NCBI GenBank assembly: GCA_040381555.1
Contig: JBEIHC010000001.1
Location: 3,091 to 67,090, forward strand
Source of the DNA: Bacteroidia bacterium
GTDB lineage: Bacteria > Bacteroidota > Bacteroidia > J057 > RFSG01
Length of the DNA stretch: 64,000 nucleotides
Reading direction: 5' to 3'
In this document: positions 32,095 to 60,472 of the stretch, in pieces
Layout of the letters: every line of letters begins with the position of its first letter
How positions within the stretch are numbered: the stretch's first letter is position 1
Made by a program: the position numbers and the translations under genes
Notes under the pieces: generated by a model
Database searches by the model: none
Seen by the model: the letters and a program-made list of their open reading frames with translations, nothing else
What the model was told of the DNA's origin: nothing

Positions 32095-32109
32095 GTTATC
32101 ACCAAGCGG
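32095..32109 (+). promoter_or_regulatory. Third occurrence of the 15-mer GTTATCACCAAGCGG (identical to 183..197)
   Basis: Exact 15/15 match to repeat copy A and 13/15 to copy B (2758..2772). It lies 109 nt upstream of the lipoprotein gene start at 32218. Confidence 0.4.
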
Positions 32110-33020: not shown

Positions 33021-34844
33021 ATGAAGCGTAATAGTATAGCTTGCTTACTTTCTCTGGTCATCACCGGAGTGGTCTATTTTCTAACCATGGCTCCCAGTGT
33101 GGTGGAGATTGATTCGGGAGAATTATCCGCCGTACAATTCACCGCTGGAATAGCTCATCCAACGGGCTATCCTCTTTTTACCTGGTTAGGCTGGCTTTTT
33201 ACTCGAATTCCTTTGGCCTCCTCCATGATTTATCAGATCAATGTATTGGCACTGGTTTATGTATTGGCTTCTCTGGGAATACTCTGGTTTGCATTTAATT
33301 TATTTCTGACAAAAGTATTATCGGTGAAAGATGAATGGGCTGGTTTCATTCTTCCATCTGCTTTAGTAATTACCCTGGGATTATCTAAAACCTACTGGGC
33401 ACAGGCTACTGCAACGGAAGTTTATTCCCTGAATCTGGTCGTATTGGCTGCTATTATTTTCTGCCTGATTTATATACAAGTTTATAATAATCTGAAATAT
33501 TGGTATGTTTTAGCCATATTGTTGGGTCTAGGGTTCTCCAATCACATGACCACCTTGATGATTTTACCCGGTATCGCCTGGCTCTATTTTAATTCTTATG
33601 GAATCAGCAAACCCGAATTATGGAAAAGGCTGGGGAAAATGATTGCAATTTTTTTGAGCGTTCTGGGAATTAATTATGGCGGATTAATGTTCCGGGCTGC
33701 TTCTGAACCCCTGTTAAATTGGGGAAATCCTCATTCCTTTGAGCGATTAATGGTGCATGTAAGTGGTTGGCAATATCGTGTATGGTTATTCTCTTCTTCA
33801 AAAGTAACCAAAGCCAATTTGGCAGAATTCTTTGCTGGTTTCCAGAATGAATTTATGGTATTGGCAATTCTTACTTTAATTGCTGGACTTTTATTTCTCT
33901 GGAAACAAAATAAAAGATGGGCGATATTCTTTAGTATCAGTTTTGCTTTTACGGTATTGTATGCCTCCAATTATGATATTGCTGATTTGGATTCCTATTT
34001 TTTATTAGCCTATATTGCTGCCAGTTTTTTATTGTTAAGTGGCTGGGTCTATTGTATGCAATGGAAACCTGCATATTCAAAAATAATTCTCGCGATTGCC
34101 TTTATTCCCGGAATTTGGCAAGGTATCACTCAATTTGAAGCTCAGGACAGAAGCCAAGAATTCGTATTTGAAGATTACACCCGTGATGCCATGAATTCTC
34201 TTCCTGAGAATGCTTTGTTGATGAGTTATCAGTGGGATTTTCTCGTTTCACCTACTTATTATTTTCAACAAGTAGAAGGGTTTAGAAAGGATATTTGTGT
34301 AGTAGATAAAGAATTACTTCGTCGCTCTTGGTATTATCCACAAATGGAGCGACAGTATCCGGATGTATTTAAAAGGGTAGAGGCAGATAGCAAGGAATTT
34401 ATTCAAGAGGTAAGTCCTATGGAATTGGGACAAACGAATTTCGATGCTAAAAAGCTCGAATTTCTATTTCGGAAAATAATTAAAGATTTAATTACACCCG
34501 GAAAATACGAAGCCTATCTGGGTATTGAAATGATGCAGAACGATCTACGGAATAATAAAATAGATTTACCTCAGGGATATACTTTTATTCCGGATAAATA
34601 CTTTATGCGCATTGTTGCGGACTCTGCTGGATATCAGCCCTTGGAATTTACCCCCTATCAAATTCGATTTGGAAACCCTAAAAATTCCTATGGCACTGAA
34701 ATCCGCAAGATTGCTGCCAGTATGGCGGTCTATCGTGCCTTATACGAAAAAGCTGCAGGCTTCCCCGATAAAGCAAACCAATGGAAAACAGAAGCCCTGA
34801 GAGTTAAACCCGATTTTCAATTACCCAGCGAATTGAAGGAGTAA
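33021..34844 (+). CDS. DUF2723 / TMEM260-like GT-C fold membrane glycosyltransferase
   Basis: N-terminal FLTMAPSVVEIDSGELSAVQFTAGIAHPTGYPLF is characteristic of DUF2723 proteins. It has about 10 TM helices and a soluble C-terminal region. Confidence 0.7.
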   Translation: MKRNSIACLLSLVITGVVYFLTMAPSVVEIDSGELSAVQFTAGIAHPTGYPLFTWLGWLFTRIPLASSMIYQINVLALVYVLASLGILWFAFNLFLTKVLSVKDEWAGFILPSALVITLGLSKTYWAQATATEVYSLNLVVLAAIIFCLIYIQVYNNLKYWYVLAILLGLGFSNHMTTLMILPGIAWLYFNSYGISKPELWKRLGKMIAIFLSVLGINYGGLMFRAASEPLLNWGNPHSFERLMVHVSGWQYRVWLFSSSKVTKANLAEFFAGFQNEFMVLAILTLIAGLLFLWKQNKRWAIFFSISFAFTVLYASNYDIADLDSYFLLAYIAASFLLLSGWVYCMQWKPAYSKIILAIAFIPGIWQGITQFEAQDRSQEFVFEDYTRDAMNSLPENALLMSYQWDFLVSPTYYFQQVEGFRKDICVVDKELLRRSWYYPQMERQYPDVFKRVEADSKEFIQEVSPMELGQTNFDAKKLEFLFRKIIKDLITPGKYEAYLGIEMMQNDLRNNKIDLPQGYTFIPDKYFMRIVADSAGYQPLEFTPYQIRFGNPKNSYGTEIRKIAASMAVYRALYEKAAGFPDKANQWKTEALRVKPDFQLPSELKE

Positions 34845-34880
34845 GGGAGGAAAATAGTATATTCGTTATTCTTTCTTTAT

Positions 34881-35463
34881 TCTCGTGAGCTAACTCTTTC
34901 GCTCTCTTCTCTCATTCTCGCTCTGACCTTTGGGGTGTGTTGTCATTCGTACGGCTCTGTGCAAGTGTTAGTGCGGCAAATATTGCATCCGTGCGGCAGG
35001 GTAGGTTTTCCTATTATTGAACTTTTATATTTAAGTCTGAATCACAGACCAAAAGGAATGGGGGATTGCGCAGATTGTGCTATTGCATTTTTCCAAGTAG
35101 AGATGCACAATTGTGCGTCTCTACTGTAAGAGCGCAATATCATAGCGAGGCGGTACCGCCCCTCGTGAAATTAAATTCGCTACGCTCATTATTGTTTAAC
35201 CACTAAGATCACAAAGAAGGTTACAAAGTACCACAAAGTGTAATCTGCGCGTATCAAGAATTAACCGCAAAGTAACAAAGGGACGCAAAGGGGCGCTTCG
35301 CTTTTTAATTTACGCTACTTAAATAATTGAGGTGCGTGCGGCCGGCTGTCATGTCGAGTACGAGGCCCAATGGAATTTTGCAATAACGAAATTTAGGAGG
35401 CCTCGTATCGAGACAGGTGCGGCTCGAAAAACAGAGTGAGAATGAGAGCGAAGTTGAGAATTC
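34881..35463. repeat. Non-coding structured island bounded by imperfect inverted repeats (MITE/REP-like composite)
   Basis: The reverse complement of the left end (34881..34925) reads cagagcgagaatgagag..., and the right end (35432..35463) reads cagagtgagaatgagag... Internal hairpins lie at 35097..35124 (12-bp stem) and 35346..35416 (18 paired positions). Six RCAAAG hexamers lie at 35209..35290. Confidence 0.5.
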
Positions 35464-35583
35464 TAAAGTATAAAGTTTAATAAACGAAGGGTAAATCTGG
35501 ATAGCGAAATGTCGGTTTCATTGCTATTCGGAATAGTTTTCGGCCAAACATCAAACTCTGTCTCTCCCCTCCCTGCCCTGAAA

Positions 35584-35655
35584 GGGCATTTTAGTTTGTC
35601 CTGCACTTTAGTGCAGGAAGGGTATTTTAGTTTGCCCGGCACTTCAGTGCCGGAC
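35584..35655 (-). terminator. Two tandem 36-bp hairpin modules immediately 3' of the minus-strand gene ending at 35670
   Basis: The units are gggcattttagtttgtcctgcactttagtgcaggaa and gggtattttagtttgcccggcacttcagtgccggac. The stems cctgcac/gtgcagg and ccggcac/gtgccgg differ by a compensatory pair. No U-tract follows, so the terminator role is tentative. Confidence 0.4.
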
Positions 35656-35669
35656 AAAAAGATAACCCA

Positions 35670-36699: not shown

Positions 36700-38505
36700 T
36701 CACCAAACGGTTTTATCCTGATCTATCGCAACCTGAGCTTCTGCGATTCCTTTAGAGGCCGCAACTTTCATCCAGCCTCTGGATTCGGATAATTTTCCTT
36801 GTTTCGCTAAAAGTAATGCCATTTGGTAATAAGCCTGGCCATTTGTACTATCAATGTTTAGGGCCTGATATAAGCTATGAGTGGCTAAGCTGTCTTGTCC
36901 GGTATTTTTGTAGGCTTCGGATAGCTGAATTCTATATCGGGCATTCTGTGGATACTCCTTAATACTTGCTCTGAAATAGTACAAAGCCGTGTCCCATTTC
37001 TGCTGATATAAGCTTGCCTGTGCCAATTCCGGATAATAGATTTCCGGTTCAGAAGATAAGCCTATCGCTTTGCGATACATGTTCTCGGCAGCGTAATATT
37101 TTCCTGCCTGTAAGAATGTCTTGCCCGCCCCGGTATAAGCTTGTATAGAATCGGGATATAATTCGGTAAGTTTTAAATAGAGTGGCAAGGCCTGATCCGA
37201 TTCTTGCCTGTTGTATCTGCTCTGCGCCAGATTGAAATTAGCGGCATAAATATCAGGATTGTAGCTTAAAATATCTCCATAAAAACTCTCATCATTTCTC
37301 CAGACTCTGATTCGATTTATCTGGATAGCAGAAAAAATAATAACAGTAAGGACGATAGCAATAGGTAATGAATTTCTTAATATCTGATATCTGTACCAGG
37401 CAATCCAGGAAAATTCGACAATCAGATACAGTAAGCCCAATCCTGCTATATAGTGATTTCGATCGGCCATGAGTGCCTGACCAGCAGGAAATAATTGTAA
37501 TACAGGTAGAATACAGACAAAGAAAAATAACCAGCCACTTAAGGTAACCCGACTAAAAGGTAAAATCTTAAAAAAGGTTATTAGCAGTCCAATCAATACA
37601 ACAGGCGCAAGGTAATCTCTCAATTCCGGGGATTCCGGGAAGGGATAAAAGGTTGATAATTGAATGGGCATTACCGTTCGGGAAATATAAAACACCAGAG
37701 CCCGGCATACAAATAGAAATTCCTGCCAATTGTGTAGGGTGCCGATTCGTCCTTCATTTAATTGAGCCAGAAAGGTAAACCAGACTAAAACAATTCCGAT
37801 AAAAAAAAATGGGAATTTCTCACTGATTGTATCCCTCCAGTTTATTTTCCTATTTTCCAGATAATCAATTAAAGGCAATAGTAAGGGTAAACTCATAGCC
37901 ATGGGTTTACATAAACAAGCCCAGACAAATCCAACTAAACTCAGTCGATAAAAATATTTATTTCCGCTGACCGTATAGCGGTAATAGAATAAAATGGAAA
38001 ACAAAAAACCAGCCGCATATAGTACATCCTTTCTTCCGTTTACCCAGGCAATACTTTCTGCATGCAGTGGGTGAATGCCGAAAAATAGTGCCACCATCCA
38101 TCCTTTGGTGCGATTATTTCCCAGTCTTCGAAATATTCTGTACACCAGCCAGACGTTGATTAAATGCCAGAATAGATTCTGTGCATGATAACTCAATGGA
38201 TTAAATCCACCTATTCGAAAATCCAGGGCAATACTTATGTCCACCAATGGATGATACCCTCCCTGGGTTGCGGAGGTAAATAATTTAAACAGACCAGAAA
38301 AATCTAAATTTCGGATTAATTCATTTTCTAGTACCAGTTGCTTATCCTCAATCCCAGCAAATCCATTCCACAAGGCTATCAAATTTACACTCAATACAAT
38401 CAGCAGAAGTATTACAATCGATGGACCTCTTTTACGGAGATATAAAGCAAATGAACTATCCGTAACAGAACCAGCAACCGTGGGAGAGGGGTGTAGGATT
38501 TTCAT
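36700..38505 (-). CDS. TMTC/DUF1736-like GT-C membrane glycosyltransferase fused to C-terminal TPR repeats (paralog 4, most divergent)
   Basis: Contains GGYHPLVDISIALDF and HPLHAESIAWVNGRKDVLY motifs, about 10 TM helices and C-terminal TPRs. The ATG at 38505 forms an ATGA overlap with the upstream paralog's stop. Confidence 0.75.
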   Translation of the reverse strand: MKILHPSPTVAGSVTDSSFALYLRKRGPSIVILLLIVLSVNLIALWNGFAGIEDKQLVLENELIRNLDFSGLFKLFTSATQGGYHPLVDISIALDFRIGGFNPLSYHAQNLFWHLINVWLVYRIFRRLGNNRTKGWMVALFFGIHPLHAESIAWVNGRKDVLYAAGFLFSILFYYRYTVSGNKYFYRLSLVGFVWACLCKPMAMSLPLLLPLIDYLENRKINWRDTISEKFPFFFIGIVLVWFTFLAQLNEGRIGTLHNWQEFLFVCRALVFYISRTVMPIQLSTFYPFPESPELRDYLAPVVLIGLLITFFKILPFSRVTLSGWLFFFVCILPVLQLFPAGQALMADRNHYIAGLGLLYLIVEFSWIAWYRYQILRNSLPIAIVLTVIIFSAIQINRIRVWRNDESFYGDILSYNPDIYAANFNLAQSRYNRQESDQALPLYLKLTELYPDSIQAYTGAGKTFLQAGKYYAAENMYRKAIGLSSEPEIYYPELAQASLYQQKWDTALYYFRASIKEYPQNARYRIQLSEAYKNTGQDSLATHSLYQALNIDSTNGQAYYQMALLLAKQGKLSESRGWMKVAASKGIAEAQVAIDQDKTVW

Positions 38506-40508
38506 CGGTTGGAATTTAACCACTGTTGTGCCGCACCATGACCTAAGGAGGCTGCTTTTTCAAAATTCGCCCGGGATTTTTGCTGATCCTTTAAGTAATA
38601 CCAGGTAACTCCCATATTAAAATAGGCATCTCTGAAATTTGGGTCTACCTGTAACGCCTTTTCATACCAAGATAAGGCTGTCTGATATTCCTTGCGGGAA
38701 AAATAGATTACTCCCATGTTTCCCATTGCATCCGGATAGTCAGGCTTCATTTCCAATGCCTTCTGATAGCAATATATACTGGAATCTGTTTTCTGAATCT
38801 GATAGTACAAATTCCCTAAATTATACCATACCCTTGGCTCATTTTCCTTAAGCCTTAAAGCCTCATTGTAGTGATAGGCTGCCTCGTTATATCTTCCTAA
38901 TTCATTTAATAGGGTCCCTAAATTATTATGGGGAGAGGGGTTATTGGGGTCAACTGACAATGATTTGTTGAATATACTTAACGCCTCTTCATATTTTCCT
39001 AAAGCCTGTAATGCAGTAGCCAGATTGTTATAAGTATCCGAATTGTTGGGATTCAATGTAATTGCCTTATAATACAGGGGAATTGCAGTTCCAGGTTGTC
39101 CATATTGATTTAGTAAAATCCCATAATTATTATAAGGTTCAAAATAGGATGAATCTATCGCCAAGGCTTTTTGATATAATTCCATTGCGCGCAGGTCACT
39201 TTCTTTTCCTGACTTTTCCAGTGAAACGCCTAAGTTAAATAATACAAAAGGTACATTCTGATTTTCTTTATAAGTATCTTCCCAAAGACTTTTGGAATCT
39301 TTCCATATACTTATTCGTGGAATTGTTAGGGTATATCCAATAACGATAAAGATTACCGATACTATCATGGAATATAGTTTGCCTGAAAATTTACTGAGTC
39401 TCCAGGCCAGCGCAATTGAAAATCCAATGGAGGCAAAATAAAAGTACCTATCGGCTGCAATTGCTTTCCCAACCGGAAGGATTTGTAGTACGATACTAAT
39501 TCCTATAAAGTAAAATAAGAAAGCGAGAATCCATTCAGGAAATTTCTTTCTAATCATCCATAATCCAACTACCAATCCGATGCTTAAAACAGGAGATAGA
39601 AGTAGTAGTATATTTTTTAAGGAGGGATACTCATAATGCGCGGATAAAGGGATAGGAAAAATAAACTTTTGAAGATAAAACCACACTCCATAGGATGGAT
39701 AGAGTATTTTGGCATAAAAGGGCAAGTTTCCTGTGTCTGTTCGAATAGCAGCTGCCTCGGCTTGAGCTAAAATAGCGACATAACCAAAAATTAAGCTTAC
39801 AATCAAGAACGGAAGAAATTTGGGATTTAAAATGTATTTGGGAATTTCTCTCCATTCTAATTTTCCTTCCTTTTCAATTTTTAAGGTGATACCAATCAAA
39901 ATAATAATTGGAGTTACCACCACGGCCATTCCTTTAGATAAACAGGCAAGGACTAAACAGAATATACTTAAACCCCAAAATATATTGGATTGACGCGTAT
40001 GCCAAAGATAGGCCATTAAAATGGATAAACTAGCAAACATAGTATATAAGACATCCTTTCTTTCTGCTATCCAGGCAACTGATTCCACATGTAATGGATG
40101 CAAGGAAAATAATAATCCTCCAGCCAATGATGCCCAAGGATTTTTAGTCCACATAACTAAAAGAATATATAGGATGAGGGAGGTCAGGCAATGGAGTAAA
40201 ATATTGGTCAAAATATATCCAGCGGGATCCTTACCCTGAAAGGAATAATCAATGGCGTAACTAATCATCGTTAAAGGATGATAATTTCCCATAAAGAACG
40301 ACTTGAATTCGTGGGAAATCATTTCCGTATTTAATTGTTGAATGCCTCTATTTTCACTTACATACGCTCTTTCATCATAATTGGTAAATTTATTATCTAA
40401 AGCGGGTTGATAGATGAAACCAGTTATTAAGATTAAAATCAATCCTCCTAACCAGGATAAATAAGGCGACTCGACAGTATCTTTTACCTGTATGTTTTTC
40501 TTTTTCAT
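38502..40508 (-). CDS. TMTC/DUF1736-like GT-C membrane glycosyltransferase fused to C-terminal TPR repeats (paralog 3)
   Basis: Contains YDERAYVSEN, GNYHPLTMISYAIDY and HPLHVESVAWIAERKDVLY, about 7 TPRs, and the terminal motif KAASLGHGAAQQWL. Confidence 0.8.
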   Translation of the reverse strand: MKKKNIQVKDTVESPYLSWLGGLILILITGFIYQPALDNKFTNYDERAYVSENRGIQQLNTEMISHEFKSFFMGNYHPLTMISYAIDYSFQGKDPAGYILTNILLHCLTSLILYILLVMWTKNPWASLAGGLLFSLHPLHVESVAWIAERKDVLYTMFASLSILMAYLWHTRQSNIFWGLSIFCLVLACLSKGMAVVVTPIIILIGITLKIEKEGKLEWREIPKYILNPKFLPFLIVSLIFGYVAILAQAEAAAIRTDTGNLPFYAKILYPSYGVWFYLQKFIFPIPLSAHYEYPSLKNILLLLSPVLSIGLVVGLWMIRKKFPEWILAFLFYFIGISIVLQILPVGKAIAADRYFYFASIGFSIALAWRLSKFSGKLYSMIVSVIFIVIGYTLTIPRISIWKDSKSLWEDTYKENQNVPFVLFNLGVSLEKSGKESDLRAMELYQKALAIDSSYFEPYNNYGILLNQYGQPGTAIPLYYKAITLNPNNSDTYNNLATALQALGKYEEALSIFNKSLSVDPNNPSPHNNLGTLLNELGRYNEAAYHYNEALRLKENEPRVWYNLGNLYYQIQKTDSSIYCYQKALEMKPDYPDAMGNMGVIYFSRKEYQTALSWYEKALQVDPNFRDAYFNMGVTWYYLKDQQKSRANFEKAASLGHGAAQQWLNSNR

Positions 40509-40514
40509 GTTGAA

Positions 40515-42353
40515 TTATGAATTTCCTCTTTGAGAAAGCCATTGTGATGCTTGCGTGTGGCCTAAGCCTGCCGCTTTTTGAATTGCCTCTACTCCTTCCT
40601 GATTTTTTCCGGATTGTAATCGCATCAATCCCAAGTTAAACCATGTACCTGAGTTTTCTGGATTGAGCAGAAGTGCACTATTGTATCTATTCTCAGCAGT
40701 GACAAAGTCCTGTTTCATGGCGGCAATATTTCCTAGATTTACATAGCATTCTGTTAAATCTGGATCATGTTCTATTGCTAGAATGAGATATTTTTCCGCG
40801 TCTGCTAAATTATTGGCTTCAGCTGACGCACTGCCCATTTTACTATATACAGTACCTATTTTTTTATAAACTACCTCATCGTCTGGACGAATAGTTAGGT
40901 ATTGTTTAAATGATTTTAGTGCTTGAGGATATTTTCCCAAATGGGTGTAATTATTCCCTAAGTTATGCCAGCCAATAGCATATTTAGGTCTAATACTCAA
41001 TGCTTTTTTATAAAGTGGTATGGCGAGCTCATATTTCTTGTCTTTTGTAAATTGGTTGGCTATATTATTGTATGCTACCGGAACATTCTCATGCTGGTGC
41101 ATGACATCCAGAAATAACGAATAGGTATTGTTCCAGATTTTTACTCTTTGATGACATAAATATCCTGAGGCAACTACTAATGTTGAGGCAAGCAGAATGG
41201 GAATTTTACTTGGTAAAGGCACTTGGGCAATTAACCAAGCCAATACCAAAAATAAACCGGCGGAGGGTAGGTAATAGTATCGTTCTGAAATCATGGTTTC
41301 TCCAACGGGCATAATTTGAAGTACGGGTAATATTGCAATAAAGAAGAATCCCATACCAAACCAAATGATTTTATGTTTTCTGGAAAAGTAAAGTATGAGC
41401 CCACTTAAAGCCAGCAATGCAAATGGTACTGCATAATATAAGTTAGGTAGGTTTCCACTTTCTTTGAGTGGGTAAGGATAATAAGCTGATTGAGCAATAG
41501 GAGCTATCGTTTTAGCTAAATACAGAAACAAGCCATATAGGGCTATTAAAAGTTGATCTAACCAAGTGTACTCTCGAAAAATTCTTACATTCCCTCCTTC
41601 TGTTTGGGCATCTATGGCAACCATGCCAATTATTAAGGACAGGACAAAATAGGGGGCAATAGATAGAAGCGATTTTATTTCTTTTAAGGTTTCCGGTTTT
41701 TCCCAAGCCGTAATTAATAGTGCTATTACAGGCATAATGACAGCCTGTGCTTTTGCCGTACAGGCTAGAAAAAATAGCACAAGGGATAGTATCCAATATT
41801 TTTGTCTTTCAGTTTTTATCCACTGATGCCAATATATTAATGATCCTAAAGTTCCACAAGTATAGAGCACATCTTTTCTTTCGGAAATCCAAGCAACAGA
41901 TTCTACATGCAAGGGATGAACAGCAAATAGGGCAGAGGCCACTACTGCAACGAAGGCGTTTTTTGTGAGTCGAATGCAGAGTATATAGAGTAGGGCGCTA
42001 TTTATTGCATGAAGGAGTATGTTGGTTGCATGAAATCCAGCAGGATTTAAATCAAATAATACTTTGTCAATGCTTAGACTAATCATGGTTAAGGGATGCC
42101 AATTCCCCATTACATATTTTCCCAATAAATATTTCCATCCTTCCCAGTTCCATTTGCCTAAATCCGGATTGTCATATACATAGCGATTGTCATCCCATTC
42201 GACAAAGTCATTACTCAGAGCTGCGAGATAGACCAAGATGGACAATGCAAATGGCACAAGCATCCATTTTCTTTCTTCTGTCCAAAAAGATGCTGTACTT
42301 GCTTCTGCTTTTTTACCAGTCTTATTTTCTGTTTTAAATTTTTGCTTTGCCAA
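40515..42353 (-). CDS. TMTC/DUF1736-like GT-C membrane glycosyltransferase fused to C-terminal TPR repeats (paralog 2)
   Basis: Contains WDDNRYVYDNP, GNWHPLTMISLSID and HPLHVESVAWISERKDVLY, TPRs, and the terminal motif KAAGLGHTQASQWL. Confidence 0.8.
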   Translation of the reverse strand: MAKQKFKTENKTGKKAEASTASFWTEERKWMLVPFALSILVYLAALSNDFVEWDDNRYVYDNPDLGKWNWEGWKYLLGKYVMGNWHPLTMISLSIDKVLFDLNPAGFHATNILLHAINSALLYILCIRLTKNAFVAVVASALFAVHPLHVESVAWISERKDVLYTCGTLGSLIYWHQWIKTERQKYWILSLVLFFLACTAKAQAVIMPVIALLITAWEKPETLKEIKSLLSIAPYFVLSLIIGMVAIDAQTEGGNVRIFREYTWLDQLLIALYGLFLYLAKTIAPIAQSAYYPYPLKESGNLPNLYYAVPFALLALSGLILYFSRKHKIIWFGMGFFFIAILPVLQIMPVGETMISERYYYLPSAGLFLVLAWLIAQVPLPSKIPILLASTLVVASGYLCHQRVKIWNNTYSLFLDVMHQHENVPVAYNNIANQFTKDKKYELAIPLYKKALSIRPKYAIGWHNLGNNYTHLGKYPQALKSFKQYLTIRPDDEVVYKKIGTVYSKMGSASAEANNLADAEKYLILAIEHDPDLTECYVNLGNIAAMKQDFVTAENRYNSALLLNPENSGTWFNLGLMRLQSGKNQEGVEAIQKAAGLGHTQASQWLSQRGNS

Positions 42354-42416
42354 TTTATCCTTGTTATTGCTGATACTTTATTTTCTAGTGGAATATTTCG
42401 AAAGTAATTAAATGTA

Positions 42417-44294
42417 TTACCAACCTATTCCTTGACTTTTTAGGAAATCTATCGCAGGGGCATGTCCTAGTCTTGCTGCCTTTTTATACGATTCAACTGC
42501 CTGGTCTTTGTTTCCCATACTTTGTAAGGCAATGCCTGCATTAAACCAAGCTCCTCCGAAATTTGGATTAAGTGCAATAGCTTTCTGAAATAGTTCTAAT
42601 GCTTTCGTGTTATTCCCCATCATTCCATAACTGGATCCTTCATTATTATAGGCATCGGCATACTCGGGTTTTAATCGTATGGCTTCCTCAAAGGATTGAA
42701 TGGCTTCTGTGTATTTTCCCATCATGCTGTAAGTACTCCCCAGATTATTAAAGGCCGTCTCATTTTTGGGATTGAGTTTTATGGATTTGGTTAAATATAG
42801 TTCCGATGAATCAAATTGCTGCATCATACTAAAATTATATCCCATATTGTTATACGCTTCTGCCATTTCGGGTGCTAGTTGAATGGCTTGGGTTAATAAA
42901 ATTTTGGCACTGTCATATTTTCCTAAATGGCTGAGTGTGTAACCTCCATCATTGTATTGGTCTGGATAATCAGGATTTTCTTGTATACCTTTTATATACA
43001 CATCTGCAGCTTCTCTTTTCCGATTCTGTTTTTCCAAATATCTTCCTAGGTTGACAAATGCAAAATCAACAGAAGGATCTTTTTTGATGATATGGGTAAA
43101 AAATGTTTCTGTGTTTTTCCATATCCCAATTTGCTGGTAACTTAAAATTCCCCAGAATATGGCAATTCCTACTCCAGTTAATAAGGCAATTCTCTCTTTC
43201 AATTTCGTGGCAATCACCCAGGCTACTAGAAGGCCTAATCCCAAGCCCGGAAGGTAAAAGTATCTGTCTGCTGCAATGGCATTACCAACGGGTAAAAATT
43301 GCGCAACCGGAAGTAGATGGATTAAATAAAAACTAAGACCAAAGAATATAATTTTTTCTTTTTTCCAACTTGCCAATAGAATATAAAGGAGTAAGGTAAT
43401 TCCAGCGAGGCTTAAATACCAGATACCCGATAAAGGAGCTTCGGGATAAGGATAAAATGGAACTAATGGATAAGGGAAAATAAATTTTGGCAAATAGAAG
43501 AGTAAACTCCCACAACCCAGTAGTAGTTGTTCCCCTATATTGAAGGCTTCGGAGCTGCGGATATTGCCCCCAGATTTTTGGGCATAGATGGCTATAATTC
43601 CAAAAACAAGAGATAAAAGAATGCTGAACAAAAGCGGTATGTTTTTAAATAATTCCTTCGGTTTACTTCCTAAGAATAGTTCAATAAGGATAATTGCCAA
43701 TGGAAGGGTTACGGCTTGTCCTTTGGAAAGACAAGATAAAATAAAGAGTGCCATCATAACGATAATGTCCTTCATTTTTCCTGATTCACGATACAATAGC
43801 CAAAAGGATAGGGAGGCGAGGTAGAAGAATCCGTACAATACATCTTTCCTTTCAGTGACCCAAGCTACGGACTCCACTTTCAGAGGATGTAACCCAAAAA
43901 ATAGGGCTGCCAGCAGCGCCATGGGTAGATTTTGGGTTAATTGATGTATTACTCTCAATGCCAGCAGGGTGGTTCCAATATGGAGAGCGAGATTGGTTAG
44001 GTGGTATAATTTGGGTTCTATTCCAGCTATAGAGAATTCAATTGCATAGGATAAAATCACTAAAGGGTGATAATTACCCATGACAAAATTTCTGAAAATA
44101 TCCTGTATGGCAGTCCAGGTAAGATTGCGTATCAGTGGATTTTCGTAGACATACACATTGTCATCCCAGGAAAGAAAGTTTAAGTTTTGAACAGACCAGA
44201 ATGCCAATAGTATCCCCAAAAAAGTACCTGAGTAGGCGATTAAAGGTGTTAACTGGCTCTTTGTCGATTTCTTTTTCATTGGTATGTTTTTCAT
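42417..44294 (-). CDS. TMTC/DUF1736-like GT-C membrane glycosyltransferase fused to C-terminal TPR repeats (paralog 1)
   Basis: Contains WDDNVYVYENP, GNYHPLVILSYAIEF and HPLKVESVAWVTERKDVLY, TPRs, and the terminal motif KAARLGHAPAIDFL. Confidence 0.8.
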   Translation of the reverse strand: MKNIPMKKKSTKSQLTPLIAYSGTFLGILLAFWSVQNLNFLSWDDNVYVYENPLIRNLTWTAIQDIFRNFVMGNYHPLVILSYAIEFSIAGIEPKLYHLTNLALHIGTTLLALRVIHQLTQNLPMALLAALFFGLHPLKVESVAWVTERKDVLYGFFYLASLSFWLLYRESGKMKDIIVMMALFILSCLSKGQAVTLPLAIILIELFLGSKPKELFKNIPLLFSILLSLVFGIIAIYAQKSGGNIRSSEAFNIGEQLLLGCGSLLFYLPKFIFPYPLVPFYPYPEAPLSGIWYLSLAGITLLLYILLASWKKEKIIFFGLSFYLIHLLPVAQFLPVGNAIAADRYFYLPGLGLGLLVAWVIATKLKERIALLTGVGIAIFWGILSYQQIGIWKNTETFFTHIIKKDPSVDFAFVNLGRYLEKQNRKREAADVYIKGIQENPDYPDQYNDGGYTLSHLGKYDSAKILLTQAIQLAPEMAEAYNNMGYNFSMMQQFDSSELYLTKSIKLNPKNETAFNNLGSTYSMMGKYTEAIQSFEEAIRLKPEYADAYNNEGSSYGMMGNNTKALELFQKAIALNPNFGGAWFNAGIALQSMGNKDQAVESYKKAARLGHAPAIDFLKSQGIGW

Positions 44295-52169: not shown

Positions 52170-52180
52170 CAGAATTGCTT

Positions 52181-53464
52181 ATGAAGTATTTTTTTCGTGC
52201 ACTCGTCTTACCTATTTGTCTGATTTTTTCAGCAAACATTCTGCCTGCACAAACTCCCGATTGTGACCAAACTCCAATTGCGTGTATGTTGGACAGTCTG
52301 CTGAGCAACTATCAGTACAAGGTAAAGACCCGGATGAATAACCGAAACACAGTAAAAAATACTTTTGGGTATGCAGAAACAGATGTTCCAAGCGCTGAAC
52401 CTCAGGTAATCAAAGATAGAATGCGTCGCTTGGGTTATGAGATACCTTTGAATTACAATCCCCAAGTTCAGTCATTTATCGATTTGTATACCGTTCGTCG
52501 TCGAGATCAGGTTGAGAAAATATTAGGATTGATGCCTGTTTACTTTCCCATTTTTGAGGAAGTATTTGACAAGGCAGGTATTCCTATGGAAATTAAATAC
52601 CTTTCAATTGTGGAGAGTGCTCTCAATCCTCATGCAATTTCCAGAGTAGGAGCTACTGGTGCTTGGCAGTTCATGTATTATACTGCCCGATTGTATAATT
52701 TAAATATTGATACTTATGTCGATGAACGCCGCGATCCACACAAATCCGCCGTTGCTGCAGCAGAGTATTTTAAAAACATGTACCGTATCTACAAAGATTG
52801 GCATTTGGTTATTGCCGCTTATAATTGTGGTCCAGGAAATGTAAACAAGGCTATTCGTCGCTCTGGAGGGAAAACAAATTTTTGGGAGATTAGCCCTTAT
52901 CTACCAGCAGAAACACGGGGGTATGTGCCAGCCTTTATGGCTGCTTGTTATGTATTTAATTATTCTGCGGAACATAATCTATACGCTCAACAGGTAGATT
53001 TTTCCTACCATCAAGATACCTTACACATCGTGCAATGCAAATTGAATTTGAAAGAATTAGCGGCAACATCCGGTGTTGAATATGAATTACTCAAAAGCCT
53101 CAATCCTGAATTGAAAACGGATTTTGTGCCTTATTCTGAAAAGGGGTATGTATTGAGAGTGCCTGCTAAAATTTCACAAATTGCCGCTTCAAATCCGGAG
53201 CAAGTTTATAAGTCCAGTGTGGCTCCGGTTGAAACACCCACGCTCGCCTCCAATTCTACTGACGCATCCGATAGCCGCCAATTAGTAAGTGGAAAAGGAA
53301 ATCTTACCTATTACACAGTAAAATCAGGAGATGTGGTTGGTAATATCGCGAAGAAATATGGGGTGACAGCCTCTCAAATTGCCCAATGGAATGGTTTAAG
53401 AGCCTATCGAATTAATCCAGGACAAAGGTTAAAGATATATCCGCGTACCCAATACAAAGGATAA
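52181..53464 (+). CDS. Lytic transglycosylase (MltD-like) with a C-terminal LysM domain
   Basis: SLT motif SIVESALNPHAISRVGATGAWQFM and LysM YYTVKSGDVVGNIAKKYGVTASQIAQWNGL. Confidence 0.88.
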   Translation: MKYFFRALVLPICLIFSANILPAQTPDCDQTPIACMLDSLLSNYQYKVKTRMNNRNTVKNTFGYAETDVPSAEPQVIKDRMRRLGYEIPLNYNPQVQSFIDLYTVRRRDQVEKILGLMPVYFPIFEEVFDKAGIPMEIKYLSIVESALNPHAISRVGATGAWQFMYYTARLYNLNIDTYVDERRDPHKSAVAAAEYFKNMYRIYKDWHLVIAAYNCGPGNVNKAIRRSGGKTNFWEISPYLPAETRGYVPAFMAACYVFNYSAEHNLYAQQVDFSYHQDTLHIVQCKLNLKELAATSGVEYELLKSLNPELKTDFVPYSEKGYVLRVPAKISQIAASNPEQVYKSSVAPVETPTLASNSTDASDSRQLVSGKGNLTYYTVKSGDVVGNIAKKYGVTASQIAQWNGLRAYRINPGQRLKIYPRTQYKG

Positions 53465-53615
53465 TAATAAGAGTATTTATTTAGTGCTTATACAGAAAGT
53501 ATAAATATTTACTACTACTGAATCTCAGGTTTTTGCGTTATTCAAGTAAAAGGAATAAGTGCATAAACCGCTAAAATCAATTCTTTTTTCAAAGAATCCA
53601 GTATCCCAACCTTCG

Positions 53616-53815
53616 GTTTAGGGTAAACTTCAGTTTAGGGTAAACTTCAGTTTAGGGTAAACCTCCGTTTAGGGTAAACTTCCGTTTAGGGTAAACTTCC
53701 GTTTAGGGTAAACTTCCGTTTAGGGTAAACCTCTGTTTAGGGTAAACCTCTGTTTAGGGTAAACCCCGGTTTAGGGTAAACCTCGGTTTAGGGTAAACTT
53801 CCGTTTAGGGTAAAC
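53616..53815. repeat. Tandem array 1: 12 perfect copies of GTTTAGGGTAAAC at a 17-bp period with pyrimidine-rich 4-nt spacers
   Basis: Cores start at 53616 and recur every 17 nt up to 53803. Spacers are ttca, ttca, ctcc, ttcc, ttcc, ttcc, ctct, ctct, cccg, ctcg, ttcc. The array ends 4 nt before the yggS stop codon. Confidence 0.97.
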
Positions 53816-53819
53816 CTTA

Positions 53820-54500
53820 CTATTTCCTTCTGCCGAAAATGGCAGATCCAATTCTCACCATTGTTGCACCCTCTGCTATCGCTATTGCATAGTCTGAACT
53901 CATTCCCATACTCAATTCTGTCAAGGACACATTTCCTCCATTCATAGAGCTTAATTCTTTCAATAGGTTTCTTAAACCTGAAAATTGAGAACGAATCAAT
54001 TGCTGATCCTCTGTCAAAGCAGCCATGCCCATTAAGCCACAAAATTGTATGTTGGGATATAAGGTGGCTTCTTCAAGAATTTTTCTGGCTTCTTCCGGGC
54101 TCATGCCAGATTTGGTCGCTTCCCCTGAAATGAATAGTTGAAGTAATACCGAAATGCTTCGATTGTTCACTGCCGCTTCTTTTTGAATCACCTGCAGTAA
54201 TTTCTCACTATCTACTGAATGAATCATATAGATAAAGGGAGCAATAAATTTTACTTTGTTCGTCTGTAAATGCCCAATCAAATGCCATCTGGCATTGGAT
54301 ATTTCTGCTTGTTTTAGCACCAATTCCTGAACTTTATTTTCTCCCAGATCTAATTGGCCTAACTCAATTACTTTCCGAATATCTTCCACCGGATAGGTTT
54401 TGCTCACTGCAATAAGCTTGACCGAATGGGGCACTCGACCGCTTAAATTTTCCAGGTTCCGGATTTTTTCCTGAACTTCCAACAAGGGATGTAGAACCAT
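53820..54500 (-). CDS. yggS: YggS family pyridoxal-phosphate homeostasis protein
   Basis: PLP-lysine context LIAVSKTYP, HLIGHLQTNKVK, and C-terminal MVRIGSAIFG. Confidence 0.9.
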   Translation of the reverse strand: MVLHPLLEVQEKIRNLENLSGRVPHSVKLIAVSKTYPVEDIRKVIELGQLDLGENKVQELVLKQAEISNARWHLIGHLQTNKVKFIAPFIYMIHSVDSEKLLQVIQKEAAVNNRSISVLLQLFISGEATKSGMSPEEARKILEEATLYPNIQFCGLMGMAALTEDQQLIRSQFSGLRNLLKELSSMNGGNVSLTELSMGMSSDYAIAIAEGATMVRIGSAIFGRRK

Positions 54501-57327: not shown

Positions 57328-57747
57328 ATGCATGGATTTAAATTATTGAGGGTGCAGGATTTATCTGTAAATTTATTTTTAGGGGTACTATTGAATTTGG
57401 TTCTTTTCCTCTTCGGATGCGGGGAGAAGCAGGCTTCAACCGTTATGGCTGCAGAATCATTTAGGCCTTTACTCAAAGAAATGCTGATTGCGGAGAGTGG
57501 GGTAGAGGCTCTGCCTTTAAGTTACACGGAAAAAAAGGAAGCTCGTGAACAGAGGTATCGGCTTATTTTTCAAAATGCAGGTATATCCGCTGAAGATTTT
57601 TTTAACAGCTTTGAGTATTATCGTATGCAACCAGAAATAATGGACACCCTGTATGCCCATATTCTGGATGAGTTAAACGAATCACTCATGCAGCAGCGTA
57701 TGACCATCAACCCAGGTTTGGATTCTAGTCTCCTCAATCGTCCATGA
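57328..57747 (+). CDS. DUF4296-like small lipoprotein
   Basis: Lipobox LFLFGCG. The family assignment, based on the FFNSFEYYRMQPEIMDTLYAHILDEL region, is from memory. Confidence 0.45.
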   Translation: MHGFKLLRVQDLSVNLFLGVLLNLVLFLFGCGEKQASTVMAAESFRPLLKEMLIAESGVEALPLSYTEKKEAREQRYRLIFQNAGISAEDFFNSFEYYRMQPEIMDTLYAHILDELNESLMQQRMTINPGLDSSLLNRP

Positions 57748-60125
57748 AGGTTTATCCTCCAGACGCAGCAGAACGCTTAGGCTTTGATACCATACTTCGG
57801 GAATTAGCGCGTTTATCGGAGACTGATCCTATCCGAGAACAATTTTTGCATCTTCAGCCCAGTCATAATCCTTTATTAATTCGGGAGAGCCTGGTTCAGA
57901 CCAAAGCCTATATGCGCTTATTGATGCAGGCTGAGTATCCCAGAGATATTGTTTTTAGAGAGATTCAGCCTTATCTGAAAAAAGCTCTTCCCCAAAATGC
58001 CTGGTTGAGTGCAGAAGAGATTTTTAGAGTCATTTTATGGTTGCGAACTTTAAGAGTGTTATTGGCTTTTATAGAAAAAAAGAAGGATGATTTTCCAGAA
58101 TTGTTGGCTTTAATTCCTGCTGCTGAGCGTCCATTTGGCTTGCAGGAATTTTTGGCGGGTCATTTTACCTCAGAAGGTCAATTAAAAGATAATGCCAGTC
58201 CTGAGTTAGGTCGCTTGCGAAAAGGTATTTTGGAAACGGGGCATAAAGTAAGGCGACTAACCGAAAAAATACACAAAGCAGCCAGGGATCAAGGCTGGTC
58301 GGATGCTCGAGAGGTAAGTATTCGCAATAATCGTCTGGTTATCCCCTTGAATGCCGATTTCAAAGGACGGATTGAAGGATTTGTGCAGGATGTTTCTCAG
58401 TCGGGACAGACTATTTTTATAGAGCCCGCGGAGGCTCTTCCGCTTAACAATGAATTGAGTTTATTGCAGCTCAAAGAGAGGCAGGAGATTATTCGAATTT
58501 TGACCGATTTGACAGATCATCTACGAGCAAAAATGCCGGAGTTGAAGGTTTGGGAAGAATGGTTACAAAAAATGGAGATTTTGCAGGCTCGGGCTAAGTT
58601 TTCGACTAAAATTCAAGCAGATATTCCCCAGTTAGATCCCTCAGGTGATTGCCTGAAAATTGTTCAAGGCCGAAATCCATTACTAGTTCTGCAAATTCAG
58701 CAGGCGGTTGTGCCTTTAGATTTAGATTTGAACCGTCAGCAAAGGATATTATTGATTTCGGGACCGAATGCGGGCGGGAAATCTGTTGCGTTAAAAACGG
58801 CTGGGATATTACAATGGATGGTACAATGCGGATTACCAGTTCCCGCCGATTCCTCTTCCATTTTTCCTGTATTAGCTTCTTTGTTTACAGTTGTAGGGGA
58901 TGGGCAGTCGATTGAAAATGATCTAAGTACTTATACGGCACATTTAAGTCATATGCGGTATTTGTTGGAGCGAGCCCATGAGTCCTCTTTATTTTTGATA
59001 GATGAGTTTGGTTCGGGAACGGATCCCCGTTCAGGAGGACCCATTGCAGTGGCTTTGTTGGAGGCGCTCGTTGAACAAGGCGCGCTTGGTATTGTTACAA
59101 CACATTATAGTGATTTAAAGCAACTTGCGCGTCGAAATCCTGCTGTTCGGAATGCTGCCATGCATTTTGATTTGAAAGATTTTAAGCCTTCTTATCAGCT
59201 GGAAATGGGGCATGCCGGAAGTAGTTATGCTTTTGAAATTGCCCGGAAAGCCGGAATTCCGGAATCTGTACTTCGAAGGGGAAAGACCCTAATGGGAAAG
59301 GCACCTGCGGAAACGGAAGAATTATTAACCGCCTTAAATCGAGACAAGGAAGAGATACTTAAGCTACAGGAGAAATTAGGAATTGAATCTCTGGAGAATC
59401 AAAAAATAAGGGATAAATTAAATCAGGCGGAAAGAGAAGCCAAGGAGAAAGTCAGGAAACTAATTGCCGATGCACGCGAGCAGGCTAGGGGAATGTTAAC
59501 CGAAGCTTCCAAAAAAATTGGAGAATTAGTTCAGGAAACGAGGGAGAAGCAATTAGAAAAAAAGGTTGCCAAAAGCATACAGAAGGAATTGATGAGTTTT
59601 ATTCCGGATATTGATCAGGGAGAGGAAGTTTTTCTGGAGCCAATACCTGGATTTAAAGAAGTAATCGGAGTAGATCCTGTTATAGGAGATCGGGTAAAAT
59701 GGTTCAGTACCGGTGCAATTGGTAGGGTGCTGGATATTCTGAATGGAAGATTTGTTATTGCCTTTGGAGATATTCGAACCTCTTTGAAAAGAGAAGAGAT
59801 TATTCTCTTAAAAACGGAAGAAGATATTTCTAAAATTAAGGTAGAAATTTCTGCGCAAACTCGAGCTGATCATAAAATGAATGCGACAATCACTTTGGAT
59901 ATTCGGGGTCAAAGAATGGAACCTGCGCAATTGATGTTGCAAAAATTTCTAGATGATGCTTTTGTGAATGGCTTGCCTTTCGTTCATATTATCCATGGAA
60001 AGGGAAATGGGATTTTAAGAACCATGACTCGGGATATGTTGAAACGGGCACCTGGGGTGAAGCGGGTAGAAGAACCGCCCATTGAGCAGGGCGGGGCAGG
60101 GGCAACGGATGCTTATTTTAATTGA
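57744..60125 (+). CDS. mutS2: Endonuclease MutS2 (MutS domain V plus C-terminal Smr)
   Basis: Walker A GPNAGGKS, DEFGSGTDP, and a C-terminal Smr domain (LDIRGQRMEPA...IIHGKGNGILR). Confidence 0.93.
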   Translation: MKVYPPDAAERLGFDTILRELARLSETDPIREQFLHLQPSHNPLLIRESLVQTKAYMRLLMQAEYPRDIVFREIQPYLKKALPQNAWLSAEEIFRVILWLRTLRVLLAFIEKKKDDFPELLALIPAAERPFGLQEFLAGHFTSEGQLKDNASPELGRLRKGILETGHKVRRLTEKIHKAARDQGWSDAREVSIRNNRLVIPLNADFKGRIEGFVQDVSQSGQTIFIEPAEALPLNNELSLLQLKERQEIIRILTDLTDHLRAKMPELKVWEEWLQKMEILQARAKFSTKIQADIPQLDPSGDCLKIVQGRNPLLVLQIQQAVVPLDLDLNRQQRILLISGPNAGGKSVALKTAGILQWMVQCGLPVPADSSSIFPVLASLFTVVGDGQSIENDLSTYTAHLSHMRYLLERAHESSLFLIDEFGSGTDPRSGGPIAVALLEALVEQGALGIVTTHYSDLKQLARRNPAVRNAAMHFDLKDFKPSYQLEMGHAGSSYAFEIARKAGIPESVLRRGKTLMGKAPAETEELLTALNRDKEEILKLQEKLGIESLENQKIRDKLNQAEREAKEKVRKLIADAREQARGMLTEASKKIGELVQETREKQLEKKVAKSIQKELMSFIPDIDQGEEVFLEPIPGFKEVIGVDPVIGDRVKWFSTGAIGRVLDILNGRFVIAFGDIRTSLKREEIILLKTEEDISKIKVEISAQTRADHKMNATITLDIRGQRMEPAQLMLQKFLDDAFVNGLPFVHIIHGKGNGILRTMTRDMLKRAPGVKRVEEPPIEQGGAGATDAYFN

Positions 60126-60191
60126 TTTTTTGGGGGTATTCCCCAATACCTGACTCGTATTTTTTTGAACCCAACTCTTGACCTCTAATAG

Positions 60192-60391
60192 GTTTAGGGT
60201 AAACTGAGGTTTAGGGTAAACGGAAGTTTAGGGTAAACGGGAGTTTAGGGTAAACGGAGGTTTAGGGTAAACGGAAGTTTAGGGTAAACGGGAGTTTAGG
60301 GTAAACTGAGGTTTAGGGTAAACGGAAGTTTAGGGTAAACGGAAGTTTAGGGTAAACGGGAGTTTAGGGTAAACGGAGGTTTAGGGTAAAC
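60192..60391. repeat. Tandem array 2: 12 perfect copies of GTTTAGGGTAAAC at a 17-bp period with purine-rich 4-nt spacers
   Basis: Cores start at 60192 and recur every 17 nt up to 60379. Spacers are tgag, ggaa, ggga, ggag, ggaa, ggga, tgag, ggaa, ggaa, ggga, ggag. The array lies between the mutS2 stop (60125) and the adhesin ATG (60484). Confidence 0.97.
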
Positions 60392-60464: not shown

Positions 60465-60472
60465 TAAATTTG
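60465..60472 (+). promoter_or_regulatory. Bacteroidota -7 box candidate (TAAATTTG)
   Basis: Matches TAnnTTTG and ends 11 nt before the ATG at 60484. Confidence 0.35.

Follow-up and report, generated by a model that had tools for sequence, protein, structure and literature searches.

How can a short DNA sequence stay letter-perfect through twelve consecutive copies while the few nucleotides between these copies keep changing? This question is raised by a 200-nt tandem array, hereafter array 1, in a 64,000-nt stretch of a Bacteroidia bacterium assembly (GenBank GCA_040381555.1, contig JBEIHC010000001.1, positions 3,091 to 67,090 of the forward strand), which we refer to as the window and which consists of ordinary chromosomal DNA from an uncultured member of the Bacteroidota. 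Our analysis favours, with moderate confidence, the view that array 1 and a twin, array 2, belong as expanded copies to a family of phased mini-palindromes that is lineage-specific and dispersed, resembles repetitive extragenic palindromic (REP) sequences and bacterial interspersed mosaic elements (BIMEs) and behaves as a hypervariable minisatellite. Each unit of this intergenic family combines a 13-bp dyad-symmetric core with a 4-nt tag, and successive units follow one another head to tail at 17-bp intervals.

Results

Array 1 (positions 53616-53815, plus strand) comprises 12 exact copies of the core GTTTAGGGTAAAC at a 17-bp period, with 11 internal 4-nt spacers. The cores start at 53616, 53633 and so forth up to 53803, with 0 mismatches in 12 of 12, and Tandem Repeats Finder (TRF) returned 12.1 copies, a period of 17 and 0% indels. 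A first-pass annotation of the window had reported twelve perfect cores at a strict 17-bp period, and the exact matches and the TRF period bear this out. The core GTTTAGGGTAAAC is a 13-bp dyad in which inverted 5-bp arms (GTTTA/TAAAC) flank GGG, and the array as a whole is a head-to-tail repeat whose unit lies within the 10-100 bp minisatellite range (TRF). In order, the internal spacers read ttca, ttca, ctcc, ttcc, ttcc, ttcc, ctct, ctct, cccg, ctcg and ttcc. When up to two mismatches to the core were allowed, the window contained 25 matches against an expectation of 1.78, a count reached by 0 of 100 shuffles; array 1 therefore did not arise by chance.

Array 1 is not a singular structure: there is a twin at 60192-60391, the core occurs at three loci or more, and relatives carry related phased mini-palindromes. 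Array 2 (plus strand), 6.4 kb from array 1, has 12 identical GTTTAGGGTAAAC cores in the same orientation and with the same period, separated by purine-rich spacers (in order tgag, ggaa, ggga, ggag, ggaa, ggga, tgag, ggaa, ggaa, ggga and ggag). The two 200-bp arrays form direct repeats that bracket yggS, a batA cluster and mutS2. Their flanks share no similarity on either strand (best local alignment score ≤18), and the outer flanks of array 2, atag and cctc, differ from its spacers. For both arrays, the copy number (12/12) and the spacer order are given as assembled from the metagenome.

Relatives were found via MutS2 homologues and their 90% cluster, and their contigs were then compared with the window. 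Identities given for them are nucleotide identities to the window over the 6.4-kb inter-array segment; site 1 denotes the gap between the SLT/LysM gene and yggS, site 2 that between mutS2 and sprB. The window has 12 units at site 1, all with a GGG centre, and 12 at site 2. L033 (93.7%) carries 15 units at site 1, again all GGG, and at least 8 at site 2, where its contig ends. In L034 and L036 (90.5%; 90.6% for L036), site 2 holds 3 units with the centres GAG, GGG and GGG; site 1 holds 4 units in L036 (GTG, GTG, GGG and GGG, the last core ending in TAAAG) and falls into a scaffold gap in L034. L021 (89.6%) has 5 units at site 1 (three GTG, then GGG, then GGG with a TAAAG end) and no recognisable array at site 2. 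At about 70% identity, L015 has 0 units in a site-1 gap of only 26 bp and the L016 contig ends before this site, and in both of them site 2 is occupied by a degenerate remnant, GTTTGCAGCACAC ttca GTTTACAGCATAC cc GTTTAGG... L014 (99.8%) is a Logan contig from a separate sequencing run, which breaks inside both arrays and independently confirms their ends; its last site-1 spacer is tttc, where the window has ttcc.

Arrays are found at both sites in independent assemblies (NCBI/ENA, JGI and Logan; different runs), and in every relative their boundaries have the same position with respect to the host genes. Copy number, on the other hand, is highly unstable between close relatives, the polymorphism at a single locus ranging from 0 to 15 units at site 1 and from none recognisable to 12 at site 2. 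Nor are the cores universally perfect, given the GTG and GAG centres and the decayed terminal TAAAG in short arrays of relatives that are ~90% identical: only the long arrays have perfect cores, and units at the ends decay. The first-pass annotation had set against its own proposal the picture of an abundant, generic intergenic repeat with random copy numbers and degenerate cores; copy number is indeed variable and cores are degenerate in the relatives, yet abundance as a generic repeat did not emerge from the 229 kb scanned.

The spacers record how the arrays change. In array 1, identical spacers sit next to each other in 4 adjacent pairs, above permutations (P = 0.024). The spacers of array 2 show a higher-order periodicity of 3 units (autocorrelation 0.78 at 51 bp and 0.80 at 102 bp), and those of array 2 in L033 a periodicity of 4 units (0.88 at 68 bp). 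Because of these adjacent identical spacers and the autocorrelation peaks at 51, 102 and 68 bp, growth and loss can be assigned to blocks of 1-4 units, and such block duplication and deletion fits replication slippage or unequal exchange. Across more than 70 units there was no indel, and the 17-bp phase is strict.

Mutations are unevenly distributed within the unit. In the long arrays, 0 changes in the 13 core positions compare with at least 9 mutational steps in the 4 spacer positions, a contrast with a probability of ~2e-6 if changes fell uniformly. Over two loci and four lineages, more than 70 units have kept the arms GTTTA/TAAAC without change, terminal units being the only exceptions. Meanwhile, the non-coding DNA flanking array 1 is 17-24% diverged, its left non-repeat flank being 83% identical to that of the window in L033 and 76-77% in L036 and L021. 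Since the arms are invariant despite this divergence, the core appears to be under some constraint or homogenisation. Neutral concerted evolution predicts ~2-3 changes per core at such flank divergence and, as it lets a consensus drift at the neutral rate, something constrains the core. Where cores of relatives vary internally, it is in the middle base of the centre, on the dyad axis (GGG, GTG or GAG).

The spacers, too, are far from random. Pooled over the long arrays of the window and L033, array 1 spacers follow the profile Y-Y-C-N (C15T10, T20C5, C25 and G12C7T4A2 at the four positions); the third position is C in 43 of 43 internal spacers, the first two are pyrimidines throughout, and the types ttca, ttcg and cccg reappear in units of relatives at ~70% identity. 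The proposal of constraint or conversion on the core only can thus be retained in part: unchanged cores beside at least 9 spacer changes, and invariant arms, speak for it, but the Y-Y-C-N spacers are too constrained for the core to be the sole target. In array 2, the profile is N-G-R-R (G16T2, G18, A14G4 and A12G6, pooled from the window and L033), the exact reverse complement of that of array 1. With GGG, the asymmetric centre, in the same orientation in both arrays, it is the spacer that is turned around from one array to the other.

The scanned DNA of this lineage amounted to 229 kb, i.e. the 64-kb window plus about 165 kb from relatives. A third locus was found in L027, in an unrelated gene context beside an Rpn-like nuclease gene, and reads GGGTAAAC ttcg GTTTAGTGTAAAT ttca GTTTAGTGTAAAC. 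The core is hence known from at least three loci (sites 1 and 2 and L027), and related units occur at sites 3 and 4 in relatives, while no single, isolated core was present in the 229 kb. Site 3, which follows the SprB-like gene, has two units in L021, L034 and L036 (GGTTAG-ATA-CTAACC cc GGTTAG-AGG-CTAACC), GTTATGTGTTAAC tttg GTTAAGTGTTAAC in L016 and one hairpin in L015. Site 4, between batA and yggS, has GTGTGCAGCACAT ttaa GTTTGCAGCAAAC in L015 and GCGTTCAGCACGC cccg ATATGCAGCACGC in L016. Relatives thus carry 17-bp-phased pairs of 13-15-bp palindromes at conserved intergenic sites, of which 0.05 would be expected by chance per 64 kb. In the relatives at ~70% identity, these mini-arrays occupy orthologous or nearby sites, and their arms differ by compensatory changes. 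Separate loci have a clade consensus in common, namely GTTTGCAGCAMAC at sites 2 and 4 of L015/L016 and GTTTAGGGTAAAC at sites 1 and 2 of the window, and most arrays and mini-arrays sit shortly past a stop codon. Over 17 distinct unit variants, the arms pair in 89% of cells versus 74% in shuffles (0 of 500), both-side arm changes occur in 13 cells versus 4.7 expected (0 of 500) and compensatory changes in 4 of 5 pairs, a covariation count that is biased, as a palindrome scan was the source of several related mini-arrays.

Among public sequences, a loose two-unit pattern yielded only 13 scattered single chance matches in 185,579 species-representative genomes. The exact two-unit pattern was absent from metagenome contigs and viral contigs, the relaxed pattern from viral contigs, blastn against plasmids and phages gave no match, and a literature search with the core string retrieved 0 papers. 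Genome- and metagenome-wide counting, which had been put forward together with the original observation, yielded these chance matches among the 185,579 representatives and, with a relaxed pattern in metagenomes, the L027 locus.

Most relaxed matches in metagenomes were rejected as homologues, since the pattern forced the match, the GTTTAGGGTAAAGTAGT unit found there is not dyad-symmetric and composition differs. GTTTAGGGTAAAGTAGT is a 17-bp satellite with up to ~41 copies in L024-L026 and L028-L031 (Ga0206677, Ga0206126, Ga0115572 and ERZ807291), whose 12-nt identity to the core was imposed by the search pattern. The contigs are mostly 54-70% G+C, apparently eukaryotic and rich in other tandem repeats, and L031 contains a CCCTAA-type telomere-like tract; these arrays are probably subtelomeric satellites of marine picoeukaryotes.

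A second repeat family, with a 16-bp period around the motif CCAAGCG, was observed in the same lineage, all its copies being intergenic. Its unit GTTATCACCAAGCGG occurs twice in tandem at 183-213 of the window, once exactly at 32095-32109 (12 nt past an htrA-like stop) and with 2 mismatches at 2758-2772; within the window alone, its significance is marginal (6 of 100 shuffles). Arrays of the motif comprise 2.8 units in L027 (2541-2585) and 5.8 units in L018 (9585-9677), and the latter array occupies the mutS2-sprB site of a relative with a MutS2 identity of 67%. Further intergenic tandem repeats in relatives are a 23-bp unit, CCCCCAAAACCGTATGCCGCATA, which has the palindrome GTATGC-S-GCATAC as its core and lies where a contig breaks (L018:1-49), a 66-bp unit present twice (L015:15791-15920), and a 16-bp unit present twice and adjoining yggS (L019:5922-5953). 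Besides, a 12-bp coding repeat, CTTCCATCTTTC, is present in 3.3 copies at L027:1063-1102 and encodes (MEGK)n near the C-terminus of the Rpn-like PD-(D/E)XK nuclease/transposase homologue, whose gene adjoins the third GTTTAGTGTAAAC locus.

Searches for structure and function at the RNA or DNA level gave little. Rfam returned 0 matches at the gathering threshold and 0 at E ≤ 1; no matching repeat class or Rfam family was found, in agreement with the first-pass annotation, which had recognised no described class. Predicted folds of the arrays are not superior to those of shuffles (z = +1.8, -0.3 and -0.9), and no terminator-like site lies within 53300-54000. Rfam, fold z-scores and the terminator scan thus lend no support to a structured RNA or an intrinsic terminator, and the orientation of units relative to neighbouring genes differs between loci, an inconsistency that disfavours a strand-specific RNA role. 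A promoter search with TTTG-N17-23-TAnnTTTG gave matches at chance level, none of them near the arrays, and a sigma-70 promoter scan is uninformative for Bacteroidota. Several other candidates fit poorly: a G-quadruplex, as four closely spaced G3 runs are absent upon inspection of the sequence; curvature, as 17 bp is out of helical phase; a CsrA sponge, as only 5 of 11 complemented array 1 spacers contain GGA; and a parS-like site, as the geometry of parS differs. A mobile element with shared flanks or a target-site duplication was rejected, the flanks being dissimilar and atag/cctc unlike the array 2 spacers.

Turning to the gene context, array 1 takes up 200 nt of the 355-nt gap between two convergent genes. 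On its left lies an SLT transglycosylase/LysM gene (mltD-like; 52175-53464, plus strand; PF01464 and PF01476), on its right a yggS-like gene for a pyridoxal phosphate-binding protein (53820-54500, minus strand; Ala_racemase_N). Array 1 does not fill the whole gap, as had been stated, for the SLT/LysM gene ends at 53464 and 151 nt of non-repeat DNA (53465-53615) precede the array. The last 4 nt of this stretch, ttcg, are themselves a frequent spacer type. At the other end, the stated distance of 4 nt to the yggS stop is correct: ctta (53816-53819), identical in every array-carrying relative, separates the last core from the complement of the stop codon (53820-53822). None of the listed open reading frames (ORFs) of the window spans array 1 or array 2, and there is no coding potential; the sole overlap with array 1 is a spurious 84-aa ORF inside yggS that terminates in the last two units.

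Array 2 sits between two co-directional genes, mutS2 (57744-60125, plus strand; MutS_V and Smr), past whose stop it begins by 66 nt, and a gene for a giant SprB-repeat surface protein (plus strand, ATG at 60484), which continues past the window end at 64000 and whose product in relatives has ~1885-1897 aa with PKD and CHU_C domains. Just past the mutS2 stop and upstream of the array, fold prediction places a G+C-rich hairpin, ttgggg/ccccaa (60130-60146, plus strand). Downstream by 73 nt, and 11 nt before the SprB-like ATG, lies TAAATTTG (60465-60472, plus strand), a putative -7 box that matches the Bacteroidota promoter motif TAnnTTTG. TAAATTTG(AT) is kept just 5' of the SprB-like start in L015, L016, L018 and L036, down to ~67% identity, and may represent the promoter of this gene, in which case its position implies a very short leader.

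Pfam scans covered 47 ORFs across the window, nearly all of those with at least 130 aa. They identified only chromosomal housekeeping and surface-protein genes, among them gatA, tatA, an M23 peptidase, the SLT/LysM transglycosylase, yggS, a batA/DUF58 cluster and mutS2, together with the SprB-repeat giant adhesin, TPR/PMT_2 glycosyltransferase paralogues and proteins with type IX secretion system tails. Plasmid, phage, par/rep, transposase, cas or candidate binding-protein genes were not among the hits in the 64 kb, and named relatives have a MutS2 identity of only 36-40%. The PMT_2/TMEM260-like O-mannosyltransferase-type membrane glycosyltransferases form a cluster of paralogues (26209-27861, 33021-34844 and 36700-44294); in the last of these regions, three of four tandem genes are PMT_2 fused to C-terminal TPR repeats, and the fourth (38502-40508) has TPR matches only. 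A non-coding region of 826 nt (34845-35669) contains several G+C-rich hairpins and has no Rfam match, and within it the 36-bp unit AAGGGCATTTTAGTTTGCCCGGCACTTCAGTGCAGG, with two short inverted repeats per unit, occurs twice at 35582-35654.

Discussion

The present work describes arrays of a 17-bp phased mini-palindrome that grow, shrink and decay quickly between close relatives and that grow by the duplication of blocks of 1-4 units. Their dyad arms are constant or have changed in compensatory pairs at several loci across lineages, and separate loci share a clade-specific consensus. To account for these features by membership in a dispersed, REP/BIME-like family, the core would have to be held by a family-wide constraint on the dyad. 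This might be a trans-acting factor that reads the dyad, much as REP-associated tyrosine transposases (RAYTs) read REPs or a dimeric DNA-binding protein its site, or it might be a drive at the level of the unit, in which only intact palindromes keep amplifying. Tag and centre would then represent two loops between the arms, less constrained and able to flip by hairpin-loop inversion. Such an inversion could be the reason why the array 2 spacers are turned around relative to the GGG centre, if it arose in the founder unit of array 2 and was amplified thereafter. Decay of the short arrays is what this favoured reading expects where homogenisation is weak. Any cellular effect would most likely be a by-product in cis at the DNA level, for instance if transcription units were spaced or insulated from each other or the context upstream of the putative promoter of the SprB-like gene were altered, and there is probably no essential function.

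Several points weigh against this reading. A unit of 13+4 bp is below the size range of REPs, the tag is neither GTAG nor CGTC, and all units are arranged head to tail, which is rare for REPs. Single units would form only marginal DNA hairpins (-1.2 to -2.0 kcal/mol), so that a hairpin-based drive is weakly grounded, and the fold comparison with shuffles and the palindrome-scan bias in the covariation count do not help either. The abundance of the family was judged from 64 kb of this genome and about 165 kb from relatives, and Pfam scans of the window found no transposase or candidate binding protein. Moreover, spacers should have been homogenised along with the cores if concerted evolution were neutral; perfect cores, including the non-pairing G6 and G8, beside diverse spacers therefore need an added constraint.

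A serious though rather improbable rival is a dedicated protein-binding array, iteron-, centromere- or roadblock-like. A dimeric protein would read the 13-bp dyad, and 12 contiguous sites spaced by 17 bp would nucleate a protein filament with an insulating, pausing or chromosome-organising role at either end of the 6.4-kb yggS-mutS2 segment. This would agree with the 5+3+5 symmetry and the restriction of variation to the central axis base, with a strict phase free of indels in more than 70 units, and with arms conserved far above the flanks together with one invariant spacer position. The weak single-strand folding makes duplex recognition the more natural reader of the symmetry, and both arrays expanded in parallel in one clade (12/12 and 15/at least 8 units versus 4/3 and 5/none recognisable). 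However, the arrays are dispensable and unstable, being absent, decayed or limited to 3-5 units in relatives with identical gene order; single sites are missing from the 229 kb, no par, rep or candidate binding gene lies in the 64 kb, and there are no plasmid or phage matches. The same genomes also hold phased mini-palindromes with other arms (GTTAG/CTAAC; the 16-bp CCAAGCG family) and, because the arms differ between families, a single sequence-specific protein cannot read all of them. Likewise, the G6/G8 asymmetry and the spacers flipped between arrays are a poor fit to one reader of the whole 17 bp. In an unlikely variant, the arrays would be loading platforms for a sequence-specific factor encoded elsewhere in the genome, whose specificity co-evolves with the clade core. 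This factor could be a dimeric DNA-binding protein polymerising on the 17-bp dyads into a centromere-, insulator- or roadblock-like filament that brackets yggS-mutS2, or an enzyme with specificity for tag plus palindrome, by which units are actively added or propagated; the factor's co-evolution would explain identical cores at separate loci, the parallel expansion of both arrays and their decay in sister lineages.

At the other extreme, the arrays might be purely cis-acting, functionless variable-number tandem repeats (VNTRs), born by local duplication of 17 bp and expanded by slippage, with uniform cores reflecting recency and neither a trans factor nor a family involved. Extreme copy-number variation, decay of end units, the signatures of block duplication and the degenerate proto-repeat at site 2 in the ~70% relatives, which suggests birth, expansion and decay in place, can all be read in this way. 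We nevertheless deem it rather unlikely, as the same 13-mer is found at two loci that lie 6.4 kb apart and have no flanks in common, and again at an unrelated third locus, and as the clade consensus (GTTTGCAGCAMAC or GTTTAGGGTAAAC) is common to loci. Its core is unchanged at 17-24% flank divergence, where some 2-3 neutral changes are expected, and recent expansion should have rendered the spacers uniform, too, whereas they are diverse. Taken together, identical cores with unrelated flanks and a conserved consensus disfavour a local functionless VNTR. A role as an RNA element strikes us as very unlikely. The array would be transcribed (in the yggS 3' untranslated region, or 3' of mutS2 and 5' of sprB) and display NGRR loops on small hairpins, acting as a protein sponge, mRNA stabiliser or terminator. 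In its favour, the spacers on the sense strand of yggS and mutS2/sprB read NGRR (GGAA, GGAG, GGGA and others) and are flanked by UAAAC/GUUUA stems, array 1 begins 4 nt past the yggS stop, and most family arrays lie shortly downstream of a stop codon. Yet there is no Rfam match at E ≤ 1, folding is no better than in shuffles, stems are A/U-rich and 5 bp long, terminator-like sites are lacking near array 1, array 2 comes after the hairpin that follows mutS2, and orientation is inconsistent, with tags on the strand opposite transcription in L027 and at site 2 of L015. Finally, tandem repeats are error-prone in short-read metagenome assemblies, and there is precedent in Bacteroidota for a minisatellite inside a MITE (miniature inverted-repeat transposable element), the BrickBuilt repeat (PMC4596501). 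An assembly artefact or such mobile cargo is still highly improbable here, given arrays at the same two sites in independent NCBI/ENA, JGI and Logan assemblies, flanks of arrays 1 and 2 without a common leader, tail or inverted repeat (score ≤18), and boundaries that keep a constant position with respect to the host genes in every relative.

If the family reading is true, the arrays represent an undescribed, very small relative of REPs and BIMEs in an uncultured freshwater-type Bacteroidota lineage, in which birth, expansion, loop flipping and decay are traceable across a graded series of relatives. This would provide a natural system for asking whether palindromic repeats are kept uniform by selection, drive or a trans-acting enzyme, and whether such arrays influence neighbouring genes, here that of a giant SprB-type surface adhesin. 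In practical terms, short-read assemblies break at the arrays, inside which Logan contigs end; the arrays are candidate markers for strain typing and, as 200-bp direct repeats, could mediate deletion of the 6.4-kb segment with mutS2. What is unusual is the combination of perfect cores with variable tags, flipped spacers and a graded evolutionary series; nothing points to a new mechanism or cellular function.

Comparison with known systems

The resemblance to CRISPR is superficial and confined to the layout, in that variable spacers of constant length separate the copies of an invariant repeat. The repeat measures 13 bp here versus 24-48 bp there, and the spacers 4 nt versus ~26-72 bp; the spacers share a profile and are not captured DNA, and there is no leader and, by Pfam scans of the window, no cas gene. 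In plasmid iteron and centromere arrays (R1 parC, the pSM19035 omega heptads, pBtoxis tubC and F sopC), dimeric ribbon-helix-helix or helix-turn-helix proteins form filaments. Like these, our arrays are contiguous series of short units (~7-20 there), often dyad-symmetric and often present as two arrays; unlike them, they are found in a chromosomal housekeeping context with no par or rep gene in 64 kb, vary in copy number and are absent in close relatives. Hairpin-loop inversion and template switching at quasi-palindromes are seen in chloroplast non-coding DNA and at mutational hotspots of E. coli. Here, too, short inverted arms would allow a loop to flip and one arm to be copied from the other, which would fit the array 2 spacers and the compensatory arms, although documented cases usually involve longer stems and the inversion proposed here is putative.

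With bacterial minisatellites and VNTRs (e.g. MIRU of mycobacteria), the arrays share the intergenic head-to-tail arrangement, the occurrence at several loci and the strain-variable copy number, but ordinary VNTRs have whole units homogenised, whereas in our dyad-symmetric unit 13 nt are invariant and 4 nt diverse. BrickBuilt, a 23-nt minisatellite of Porphyromonas gingivalis, and thus of a host in the same phylum, is embedded in a MITE whose leader and tail ends are shared (PMC4596501). Its repeats lack spacers and have the leader and tail in common; the arrays described here have no shared flanks and hence do not qualify as MITE-embedded.

By unit size, tag sequence and head-to-tail arrangement, the arrays also fall outside the formal definition of REPs. 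REPs are imperfect, stem-loop-forming palindromes of 20-40 bp with stems usually of 6-9 bp, compared to a unit of 13+4 bp with 5-bp arms; the tags here are YYCN or its complement NGRR, and none is GTAG, CTAC, CGTC or GACG. Most REP clusters consist of head-head/tail-tail dimers with variable linkers instead of a rigid 17-bp head-to-tail series, and the 229 kb contain no isolated copies and the window no RAYT (Y1/HUH) gene. On the other hand, REP families do include members with 5-bp stems, tandem clusters, an unpaired tetranucleotide tag, positions downstream of ORFs, clusters that vary between strains and compensatory stem variants (PMC3733652). All of this has a counterpart in our family, namely a short palindromic unit with an unpaired tetranucleotide tag, an extragenic position downstream of ORFs (array 1 between convergent, array 2 between co-directional genes), species- or clade-specific families with compensatory stem changes, and strain-variable cluster size. 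The GTAG-1 REPs of Thauera have 5-bp stems as well, and their arrays flank surface-polysaccharide genes (PMC3733652), much as array 2 lies beside the gene of the SprB-like adhesin.

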